Below, piece after piece: positions 21,001 to 24,000 of a stretch of DNA of 64,000 bases. The stretch lies in assembly GCF_058153355.1 (NCBI RefSeq), contig NZ_CM177019.1. One strand, given 5' to 3'. Made by a program: the position numbers. Position 1 is the first letter of the stretch. Every line of letters begins with the position of its first letter.

Positions 21001-24000
21001 ACTCAATGACGGTAACGGGCTTTCGTTGCTCATTGAGCCGAACGGTTCGAAAGGGTGGCGACTGCGCTACAGGTTTGCAGGAAAGCCCAAAATGTTGTCG
21101 TTGGGTGTGTACCCTGATGTGTCTCTGTCTGATGCCAGGGCGGCAAGGGATGAGGCTAAAAGGCTTCTTGCTGGTGGTATAAATCCAAGTGAGGCCAGAA
21201 AAGCCCAAAAGCGAGAACAGGCGAGCAAATTTGGCAATACTTTTGAGGGTATCGCTCGCGAATGGTACGAAAAGCGGATCGACAGGTGGTCATCGTCATA
21301 CGCCGAGGAAATGATCGAGACGTTTGAAAAAGACGTTTTTCCGTACATTGGCGGTAGGCCGATCGCAGAAATTAAGCCGATGGAATTGCTGGCGGTTCTT
21401 TCCCGTCTTAATGACCGTGGTGCGACTGAAAAATTGCGTAAGGTTCGCCAGCGATGTGGCGAGGTGTTCCGGTACGCAATCATCACCGGACGCGCCGAAT
21501 ATAATCCAGCCCCTGACCTGGTGAGCGCATTTGCTCCACATAAAAAAGAGCATTACGCCTGTTTGAAGGCCGATGAACTGCCGGAATTTTTCCGCGTTTT
21601 TAATACGTACACCGGAAGCCAGATCGTCAAACTGGCAATGCGGCTATTAATTCTGACAGGTGTCAGACCCGGGGAATTACGGCAGGCAGAATGGCGGGAG
21701 ATCGATTTTGATAATCGTTTGTGGGAAGTGCCTAAAGAACGAATGAAGATGCGCCGTCCGCATTGCGTGCCATTACCAGAACAGGCGATAAAAATACTGG
21801 AGCAGTTAAAAAACATGACAGGTCAGTATCAGTTTATTTTCCCCGGTCGTATTCACCACAGTAAACCAATGAGTGAAATGGCAATGAATGTGCTCATTCG
21901 TCGTATTGGCTACGCCGGGCGCGTTACTGGTCATGGATTCCGGCACACCATGAGCACCATTTTGCATGAGCAGGGCTATAACACCGCGTGGATAGAGACA
22001 CAGCTTGCGCACGCCGATAAAAACTCAATTCGTGGCACATACAACCATGCGCAATATCTGGATGGCAGACGCGAAATGCTCCAGTGGTATGCCGACTATA
22101 TGGATTCGCTCGAGCATGGCGGAAATGTGGTGCATGGTGAGTTCGGAAAATGCGGGGGACTGGTTGAGTATACAGTAGTAGACTTTGAGCGACTAAAAAC
22201 GGCTGTGTCTAGGGTCGCTCCTGAAAACCCGTACACCTCTGCGGGCTGGCACAGCCACTATGGTAGAGGGCGCGAGGTGACGCGTGATCGATATTGCCGA
22301 ATTACTTAACGCAGAAAAGAATAATTTCATTAGCCTGAGAGAGTTAATAGAGCGTATTAAATTATCTCAACCGAAAGCTACTACATCCCAGATAGTAAGT
22401 TTTCTTTATCAGACGCGGCAGAAATTACCCGAATGGGTTAAGTGGGATGAAATGATGGGCATTGAGCAAACATCGGAGAATCCTTTTGATGGGGATTGGT
22501 CTTTATCAGAGGTTCTTGAAGGCATTTTAAGACTAGGCTTTGTGCCAGAGGTTGAAGATTCTGTACCCCTCGCTATCGATGATAGCGACGATATTCCGTA
22601 TTGATGAAGACTTAAGGTGAATTATGGCAGATGAAGTTTATTTGGCTCGTGCTTGTGATAAGTATGGTTTTCGTCGAGCAGAGCTTAAAGAATTTGCTGA
22701 AAAACTAGGGGTTAATTTATTTTCCCCAATGGATGAAATAACCCAGTCCATTCCTGAGGTTGCTGCTAGTGATTCTTTGAATAATGGGCCGACTGTTGAT
22801 GAATTACGTGCGGAAATTGCTTTACTTAAAGCGCGAATTGAAGAACTTGAAAGCGAACGACCAATTCTCTTAAATAAATACAGGGATAATGATCCGCTAT
22901 ATCTGGCTATCGAGATTAGAAACAGAGAGTGGGCCAATTACGACCCGGAGAATGATCGCGCCACCAGGGGAAACCAGGGCGCGATTACTACTGAGCTTGA
23001 AAAACGAGGTTTTACCTCCCGACAGGCCGCATCTATTGAGCTTGTCGCCTGTCCTATCAAACGATGAAGCCTTACCCTAGAGGTATCTCATGTTTTGTTC
23101 GCGTCTCACCCTAAGGGTAATCAGACCTCACCCTTAGGGTATTTTTGTATGCTTTCCCATCAATTTTACTATTACCCTTAGGGTAAAAATATTCCCGATT
23201 ACCATTAGGCCTGAGGGTATGAAAATATTCGTTATTTCTGTGCCATGATTACCTCGTCAAATTGAGTAGACGTTATGAGGTAAATATATGTCAAATACGC
23301 TTATTCGTTTAACGGAAGTTCAGCGTAGAACTGGATATAGCAAGGCATGGATTTATCGCCTTATGGGGCAAGGTAAATTTCCTGCATCAGTTAAAATTGG
23401 CTCGCGAGCTATTGCTTTCGTTGAGAGTGAAATTGACGAGTGGATTAATCAGCGTATTGCTGAATCACGCGGAACAGCTACCTGATTAAATGGCTACGGG
23501 GCCAGAAGCCCCAGCTATCCACCAGCAAATAAAAAGTAACTTAATTCGATAGCAGGAGTTTTTATGAAATTTCCAAAAACGCCCATACAGGGGCAGGGCT
23601 TCGTTCGGCTTGAAAACCAGAATCTGCAAAATTTTGGCAAAATTATCCCGGTTATTTCCGGCGTTATTGGCGGGCGTGAAACCAATATTGTTAGCGCCAG
23701 AGCGTTGCATAAGGCGCTCGGGGTAGGCCGTGATTTCACAACCTGGATTAAAGTACGCATTGATGAGTACGGATTTAAAAAGGGCGTGGATTTTGAATTC
23801 GTAGAAAATTTGACCTCCCCCAATCCGGTGAGCGCAAAATCTCGCCAACGTATAGAGCACGACTACCTGAGCACTATCAACATGGCGAAAGAACTGGCGA
23901 TGGTCGAACGCACCGAACAGGGCCGCGCCGTTCGTCAGTATTTCATCAAATGCGAGGAGGAGCTACACAAGGTAGCGCCTGTGCGTTCCGCAGCGTTACG

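Follow-up and report, generated by a model that had tools for sequence, protein, structure and literature searches.

A conserved palindrome array upstream of alpA in an Escherichia coli phage satellite, and its association with an uncharacterised protein domain

In a 64,000-nucleotide stretch of Escherichia coli DNA (NCBI RefSeq assembly GCF_058153355.1, contig NZ_CM177019.1; hereafter the window), five related palindromic sites, O1 to O5, lie immediately upstream of alpA, inside an island of the phage-inducible chromosomal island (PICI)/P4-like phage-satellite type. Comparison with related loci confirmed that this array is real, conserved and functional-looking, and showed that it is independent of AlpA, of the integrase Int and of the integration site, and that it occurs strictly together with a C-terminal protein domain of the type found in ORF147, the product of the open reading frame (ORF) that precedes it. 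We favour, with somewhat better than even confidence, the reading in which ORF147, paired with or fused to a partner of the ORF106 type, has the five dyads as its cognate operator array; for this module, we infer DNA binding by ORF147, the position of the promoter, the sign of control and a link to the helper phage. Read from its sequence, the module is a candidate regulator-operator pair that belongs to a mobile element and involves an uncharacterised protein domain.

Published work identifies alpA as the master switch of such elements; the gene is positively autoregulated and is switched on by helper phage through an unknown factor, and alpA promoters are helper-induced, activator-dependent and intrinsically weak (PMC6092414, PMC11773190). 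How alpA of Gram-negative PICIs is switched on by helpers is openly acknowledged to be unknown, the inducer having been described as 'now under study' (PMC6092414). The module bears on this question, providing a concrete cis-element (five defined dyads) together with a candidate protein that comes with a natural specificity-swap series. In the literature searched, neither ACCCTnAGGGT nor a gene-plus-operator module at the int-alpA position is described, and searches with the motif strings led to unrelated primers and eukaryotic sites.

The array in the window and across genera

The motif ACCCTNAGGGT (ACCCTnAGGGT) is present exactly at 23108-23118, 23130-23140 and 23174-23184, within 77 bp, and these are its sole three matches in the 64 kb; the mean in shuffled sequence was 0.06, and none of 100 shuffles reached three. 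A scan with the flanked motif TACCCTNAGGGTA, allowing up to two mismatches, recovered a fourth site. Numbered from the distal end, with positions given relative to the predicted alpA transcription start, the array comprises O1 (23073-23085, a weak dyad TACCCTAGAGGTA predicted at about -177), O2 (23107-23119, CACCCTAAGGGTA, about -143), O3 (23129-23141, CACCCTTAGGGTA, about -121 and 22 bp from O2), O4 (23173-23185, TACCCTTAGGGTA, about -77) and the composite promoter-proximal site O5 (23200-23219, TACCATTAGGCCTGAGGGTA), whose 11-mer is predicted to be centred at about -43 and which in the window consists of one good half-site (GAGGGTA) and a degenerate partner. The centre-to-centre spacings from O1 to O5 are 34, 22, 44 and 34 bp, which are near multiples of 11, so that the sites lie roughly on one face of the helix. 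The array fills the interval between ORF147 (22624-23067) and alpA (23288-23485). A sequence-only reading of this DNA had reported five palindromes in about 150 bp between the int-proximal cassette and alpA, and this is borne out as three exact sites, one weak site and one composite site, repeated dyad-symmetric elements that occur well above chance.

Conservation was examined in 20 distinct arrays from at least seven genera, including E. coli, plus metagenomes. In these the five sites are preserved as the spacers diverge, with centre spacings of 32-34, 22-24, 42-44 and 33-34 bp. The arrays yielded 62 sites with at most one mismatch, in which the central N carries 0.07 bits and the flanks 0.2-0.5 bits. 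Where the window has the weak O1, other genera have a good site, such as ACCCTCAGGGT in the Yersinia locus L032, and the O5 consensus in other genera is CCCTCA-N4-TGAGGG, followed by TATGA(A/T); the GGTATGA element that abuts O5 is fixed at 71-73 nt from the alpA ATG across genera. Sites, spacing and distance to the gene are thus kept as the surrounding DNA diverges, and ACCCTnAGGGT is absent elsewhere in the 6-14 kb of the elements examined. By this phylogenetic footprinting, with five dyads at fixed spacing and at a fixed distance from alpA across genera, the earlier proposal of a multi-operator control region stands.

Within E. coli, a segment running from the middle of ORF147 through alpA was found by megablast in 167 of 5,426 complete genomes. 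This particular class is present in about 160 of those genomes. Four E. coli versions retain the dyads with different flanks, one of them with an extra 34-bp unit. Duplications of 33-34 bp in L003 (4290-4330), L007 and L026 add one or two further ACCCTTAGGGT units; such duplication variants reach five exact sites, and the helical phase is always kept.

The array is found in the same kind of context in Salmonella, Proteus, Yersinia, Serratia, Morganella, Enterobacter and metagenomic sequence, where int is followed by two ORFs, of about 100 and about 150 aa in that order, and then by the array and alpA. A search with the ORF147 protein gave 76 homologues across the Enterobacterales, all named 'hypothetical' and none with a Pfam domain, and the array was present at all nine loci retrieved through the protein. 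In the reciprocal direction, a DNA-pattern scan of IMG/VR returned 21 loci, and every one that extends far enough has an ORF147-type gene.

The protein that accompanies the array

Co-occurrence was assessed in 79 loci retrieved through AlpA alone, an array being defined as at least two sites. An array together with an ORF147-type C-domain (at least 63 bits) was found in 38 loci; the other 41 loci had no sites at all, and of these 38 had no such domain and three had only a 12-bit match. There were no exceptions, presence of the C-domain predicting the array in 38/38 versus 0/41 loci. The array does not track AlpA. Three AlpA alleles occur, at 100% identity, both in loci with the array and in loci that lack it, and for this reason AlpA is not the specific binder: identical AlpA accompanies ACCCT arrays in L094, L099, L102 and L108, and unrelated repeats in L098, L109, L107 and L111. 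L004 and L060-L064, whose AlpA is 97% identical with an identical helix-turn-helix, have no array, L004 having a different upstream gene and no ACCCT site. Conversely, AlpA proteins only 74-79% identical are still accompanied by the array in some loci, and at least six gains or losses of the array are needed on the AlpA tree. Array-bearing loci have Int proteins that are 56-99% identical, and they are integrated at different sites. The remaining AlpA-linked loci can be sorted into about 30 classes, in each of which a particular upstream gene goes with particular repeats; examples are a pair of ACCGCAATTGCGGT copies at 22 bp, direct repeats of CTTCCAAA, TTGCATGCA and a GGTGGG/CCCACC type.

The two candidate proteins are encoded on the + strand directly before the array. 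ORF106 (22284-22604, GTG start) is a small acidic, putative partner protein whose homologues stand before those of ORF147 in Salmonella, Proteus, Yersinia, Serratia and Morganella; in 248-265 aa variants from E. coli an ORF106-like part is fused to the ORF147 part, so that the two appear to behave as one functional unit. ORF147 (22624-23067), the candidate regulator, is a leucine-zipper protein with two N-terminal helices, a disordered acidic linker, a zipper helix (L61/L68/L75/L82) and a four-helix C-domain (residues ~88-147). Mean pairwise identity within its family rises from 35% in the N-terminal part to 49% in the zipper and 72% in the C-terminal part. An AlphaFold2 (AF2) model of the C-domain alone has four helices with a predicted local distance difference test (pLDDT) score of 93.9. 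A profile of this domain gathered 313 cluster representatives, in which it is always C-terminal behind diverse N-terminal regions; many of these proteins terminate in GRP-type basic tails. These features support the C-domain as the putative DNA-reading part, as do two further observations: a sister subfamily (ELWSTYD..TAPTK) pairs with GGTGG/CCACC repeats (2.27 versus 0.03 per 260 bp), and three distant members from other taxa precede alpA-like genes that have palindromes of their own. The domain is widespread, unannotated and located next to alpA-like genes in distant taxa.

Annotation searches gave no identity for either protein. ORF106 and ORF147 had nothing significant in Pfam, NCBIfam, PHROGs or PADLOC, with sub-threshold matches of coiled-coil type only; the sole Pfam signal for ORF147 was a sub-threshold TSC22 coiled-coil. 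A sequence search of the PDB with ORF147 returned coiled coils only, fold searches with the full ORF147 model and with the high-confidence C-domain model found no meaningful relative, and a Pfam scan of 66 distant domain relatives found no shared family. No confirmed match came from a peptide-pattern scan of one genome per species, no ORF147 homologue was present in 50,697 phage genomes, and the PADLOC anti-phage defence models matched neither ORF106, ORF147 nor eight other int-alpA cassette proteins. One ORF147 homologue is named a basic leucine zipper (bZIP) transcription factor by NCBI. The likeness to bZIP proteins lies in the predicted leucine-zipper dimer and in a very compact dyad that, like AP-1 sites, has one central base; however, ORF147 has no basic region on the N-terminal side of its zipper, where the linker (residues 29-57) is acidic and disordered, and its conserved domain lies C-terminal to the zipper. 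Membership of the bZIP class was rejected on these grounds.

The mechanism that we propose is as follows. ORF147 would dimerise through its leucine zipper, and the conserved C-terminal four-helix domain would read the ACCCT/AGGGT half-sites. O1-O5 would be filled cooperatively, which we propose because the sites share one helical face. Occupancy would then gate the alpA promoter, and hence excision and replication of the satellite, with the variable N-terminal part of ORF147, or ORF106, receiving a signal from the helper phage. Gene and array together would form an exchangeable specificity cassette, for which at least about 30 other gene-plus-repeat classes take the same place; such a cassette would explain the mosaic int-alpA interval of these islands. 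More tentatively, and with the odds about two to one against it, ORF106/ORF147 may provide the helper-phage sensor that has been missing for a large class of Gram-negative satellites, acting through a new zipper-tethered four-helix DNA-binding domain, and the int-alpA cassette may be an exchangeable induction-specificity module comparable to phage heteroimmunity regions.

Several points weigh against assigning the array to ORF147. The gene adjoins the array, so that their co-occurrence is partly physical linkage, and many of the loci are close relatives. The islands EcCICFT073 and EcCIMP1 are helper-inducible without ORF147 or the array, and the module is accordingly not universally required. 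In L002-type variants the last helix of the C-domain is strongly different and the motif is unchanged, which means that any DNA-reading residues must lie elsewhere.

A further explanation, which we judge unlikely, is that a factor with its gene elsewhere binds the array, whether a helper-phage activator, the target of an antirepressor or a conserved enterobacterial host protein, with ORF147 as passenger or cofactor. It draws on the finding that in related PICIs an unidentified helper factor switches alpA on even from an island-free plasmid (PMC6092414), on the lack of a recognisable DNA-binding fold in ORF147, and on the use of one motif over several genera, as expected of a conserved host or phage factor. 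Such a factor would not, however, account for the strict co-occurrence of array and domain over at least six AlpA swaps, with different integrases and with fused or split genes, nor for the separate motif of the sister subfamily. In addition, motif-pair scans of 2.9 million viral contigs identified no enterobacterial phage with such sites.

Beyond satellites, the matches in those scans were unrelated environmental phages with hairpins, tandem repeats and actinophage promoter-associated sites. One contig, L163 (127 kb, from IMG/VR, with 21 ACCCTSAGGGT sites near TTGACA), was considered as a helper and rejected, since its genes are actinophage-like, including an Lsr2-like protein and weak matches to Streptomyces and Microbacterium phages. 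The 21 TACCCT(C/G)AGGGTA dyads of L163 lie within 8 kb (1-8100), most of them about 10 nt from an opposite-strand TTGACA, and they put the same 11-mer to an unrelated use, that of a dispersed regulatory site.

A structural role of the DNA, as integrase arms, replication iterons, a partition or packaging site, or hairpins of the terminator or repetitive extragenic palindromic (REP) type, is very unlikely. Iterons, centromere-like sites and intasome arms typically have phased repeats, and the same 11-mer makes long terminator-like hairpins in unrelated phages. Against this, 2.3 kb separate the array from the tRNA/att core, and the integrases that it accompanies are 56-99% identical, on which grounds arm-type sites were rejected; PICI origins map beside the primase gene (PMC6092414, PMC10111431); and the distance to the alpA start is fixed across genera. 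A hairpin is impossible, as each dyad would have a 1-nt loop, and no T-tract follows. No terminator pattern was detected on the + strand at the array, and no Rfam family reaches its gathering score at 23071-23221; an RNA structure was rejected on the 1-nt loops and on the lack of a family at the site. The CCTNAGG core is also the recognition site of Bsu36I/Eco81I, and MqsA binds ACCT-N(2-4)-AGGT; neither explains an 11-bp motif at fixed spacing.

The least probable explanation, for which there is next to no room, is that AlpA binds the sites itself, in autoregulation or as an excision factor: AlpA does positively autoregulate in EcCICFT073 and EcCIMP1 (PMC6092414, PMC11773190) and the array stands directly upstream of alpA, but the type of site does not follow the AlpA allele, identical AlpA occurring with ACCCT arrays and with unrelated repeats and 97%-identical AlpA without an array, and the int-alpA repeats of EcCICFT073 are ACAAC-type direct repeats, not dyads. 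The sequence-only reading, which had offered an unidentified repressor or AlpA itself as the binder, thus survives for the control region and fails for AlpA, given AlpA proteins 97-100% identical with wholly different repeats and 74-79% identical ones that keep the array. Its proposal of binding tests with the products of 22284-23067 has proved the best lead. As to a repressor, the O5 position at about -43 and the genetics of the Vibrio PICMIs (phage-inducible chromosomal minimalist islands) (PMC10803314) would, in our analysis, fit an activator at least as well.

The alpA promoter, its leader and the sign of control

A consensus scan for a standard sigma-70 promoter before alpA found none. 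Read from sequence, the predicted core promoter spans 23219-23249 on the + strand and consists of a weak -35-like ATGAAA (23219-23224) that abuts O5, a 19-bp spacer and an extended -10 element, TGcCATGAT (23241-23249). Of the 20 arrays, 17 have a TGn+hexamer at -43/-44 from the alpA ATG, as do 24 of the 49 unique alpA leaders, versus 16% of shuffles. The consensus of the extended -10 is TG(c/t)(C/A)AT(C/G)AT, with a weak (A/T)TGA(A/T) 19 bp upstream that adjoins O5, and relative to the start predicted from this element the sites fall at -43, -77, -120, -143 and -175 across arrays.

The sign of control depends on which -10 element is used. The extended -10 would place O5 in the classical class II activator position. 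The alternative -10 candidate, TATGAA (23218-23223; TATGA(A/T) across arrays), would instead put O5 over the spacer and -10 edge, on the core promoter itself, a repressor-like position that favours repression and weighs against an activator. We lean slightly towards control by a helper-responsive activator bound at about -43, at an extended -10 promoter without a good -35, because of the relation between the extended -10 and O5, the proximal repeats of other classes, the PICMI genetics and the silence of gene-less PICIs. In the ACCGCAATTGCGGT and CTTCCAAA classes, too, as we read the sequences, the proximal repeat overlies the -35 position of the analogous element, and PICIs without an int-alpA gene are silent in the absence of helper (PMC6092414). 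A Stl-like repressor that occludes the alpA promoter, giving the opposite sign, has a chance not far below even.

Downstream of this promoter, the alpA leader is predicted to fold on the + strand into a hairpin (23249-23283) in which the Shine-Dalgarno GAGG is paired with an upstream CCUC. Across 52 unique leaders the mean stem was 8.2 bp, versus 5.0 in shuffles, with 35 different complementary arm pairs (among them GAGG/CCTC, GGAG/CTCC, GGGGG/CCCCC and AAGGTG/CACCTT) and a loop that often holds TAGAC(G). These folds suggest that the hairpin may mask translation of alpA, for example against read-through from int.

A second RNA element precedes the regulator genes. The Rfam int-alpA RNA (RF02996) matches 22202-22269 on the + strand with 45.5 bits, against a gathering score of 35.8, and in 11 further loci, which belong to several classes, the element is located 13-20 nt before the start of the variable gene. 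Among its copies are those at 3348-3415 in L001, 2941-3009 in L005, 2550-2619 in L030 and 2569-2637 in L032. RF02996 is absent from EcCICFT073 and EcCIMP1, both of which lack such a variable gene, and it looks like a common leader of the variable gene rather than a free-standing small RNA. It was rejected as the identity of the palindromes, since the model matches 22202-22269.

The closest published elements, EcCICFT073 and EcCIMP1, share with this type of island the tRNA/att site, int, alpA, Bro/AntA genes, isrK and C4 RNAs, icd and primase (PMC6092414, PMC11773190, PMC10111431). They differ at the int-alpA interval: EcCICFT073 has no gene there and carries ACAAC direct repeats spaced by 10 bp, whereas EcCIMP1 has another int-alpA spacer and, like EcCICFT073, neither ORF147 nor ACCCTnAGGGT. 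In the literature searched, this class has no published cis-element or dedicated regulator. In EcCICFT073 (L119, 9188-9252), five ACAAC-type repeats phased at 10 bp stand just downstream of int, with one more near alpA, and are candidate sites for AlpA acting as a recombination directionality factor (AlpA/RDF).

In PICMIs, the iolg/icg is a variable int-alpA gene with 13 families; in PICMI115, iolg is expressed constitutively together with int and helper-induced excision depends on it, and PICMI alpA belongs to the phage-induced early regulon and alone suffices to trigger excision (PMC10803314). The authors of that study propose that iolg acts in the excision complex rather than in transcription, and they report no operator array (PMC10803314). 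The likeness of iolg to ORF106/ORF147 is one of position; iolg overlaps int, whereas here the RF02996 leader separates the two.

The proposed module also resembles Stl/Rpr of the Staphylococcus aureus pathogenicity islands (SaPIs) and Gram-positive PICIs, in that a satellite regulator stands by int with multiple sites before lytic-side genes and, as proposed, has a variable sensor part that would meet helper-phage proteins. Stl, in contrast, has an N-terminal helix-turn-helix and is divergent from its target; ORF147 is co-directional with alpA, combines a zipper with a novel C-domain, and may be an activator. An identity as a SaPI Stl-type module was rejected on this orientation and on the finding that no helix-turn-helix family or fold was detected in ORF147.

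The cooperative operators of lambda OR/OL, and class II activator sites such as galP1 with CRP and lambda PRM with cI, provide a further comparison, with well-established systems. Common to these and to the array are dyads on one face and a proximal site by the -35 of a weak or extended -10 promoter, and the exchange of regulator and operators between mosaic relatives resembles phage heteroimmunity. The dyad here, however, spans no more than 11 bp, the centres of its half-sites being 6 bp apart; the fold of the protein is unrelated, and the array precedes a satellite gene for excision and activation.

The satellite island and its surroundings

The left end of the island is a tRNA-Gly(CCC) gene (20707-20780, + strand; ARAGORN and Rfam tRNA) that serves as integration site; the relatives L001 and L003 use the same tRNA, adjoining actS/xdhA. 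Next to it is a P4-type tyrosine integrase gene (20906-22309, + strand; Pfam Arm-DNA-bind_3, Phage_int_M and Phage_integrase). Its ORF is about 50 codons overlong through a lost stop, the TGA of L001 and L003 being GGA here (~22158-22160), and the extension crosses RF02996 and enters the start of ORF106. Downstream and co-oriented lie alpA (23288-23485, + strand; Pfam Phage_AlpA, E=2.4e-19) and, as the first gene after it, an AntA/Bro-type antirepressor-family gene (23564-24364, + strand; Pfam AntA, 1.7e-22) that is syntenic in all relatives. The tRNA/att site, the adjacent tyrosine integrase and the co-oriented alpA place the element among Gram-negative PICI/P4-like satellites, for which the general zone organisation has been set out (PMC10111431).

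The right-hand part agrees with this assignment, comprising the Bro/AntA zone, isrK (25506-25583, Rfam), C4 (25646-25733, Rfam) and a D5-type primase fragment (D5_N, 29149-30189), interrupted by two insertion sequences (IS): IS66, in the 26075-28438 region, follows isrK/C4 and precedes the D5_N fragment, and an IS110 transposase follows that fragment within 29149-31423. The isrK and C4 antisense-RNA genes represent RNA immunity of the P1/P4 type. As judged from these features, the satellite copy in the window is broken and probably immobile. Intact relatives have the order int, X, alpA, antA, ylcI, icd, DUF4222 and a primase or D5-type helicase gene, and the relative L016 additionally encodes ProQ/FinO.

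Two further observations concern the window. A 539-aa ORF on the + strand (24357-25976) overlaps a YlcI-like ORF on the minus strand, isrK and C4, and is almost certainly not a gene. Further downstream, type III secretion genes at 45110-58707 encode a secretin, HrpJ-like, FHIPEP, EscN-type ATPase, FliN-like, FlhB/SpaS-like and PrgH proteins; this is presumably the ETT2 island, a known neighbour of this tRNA-Gly.

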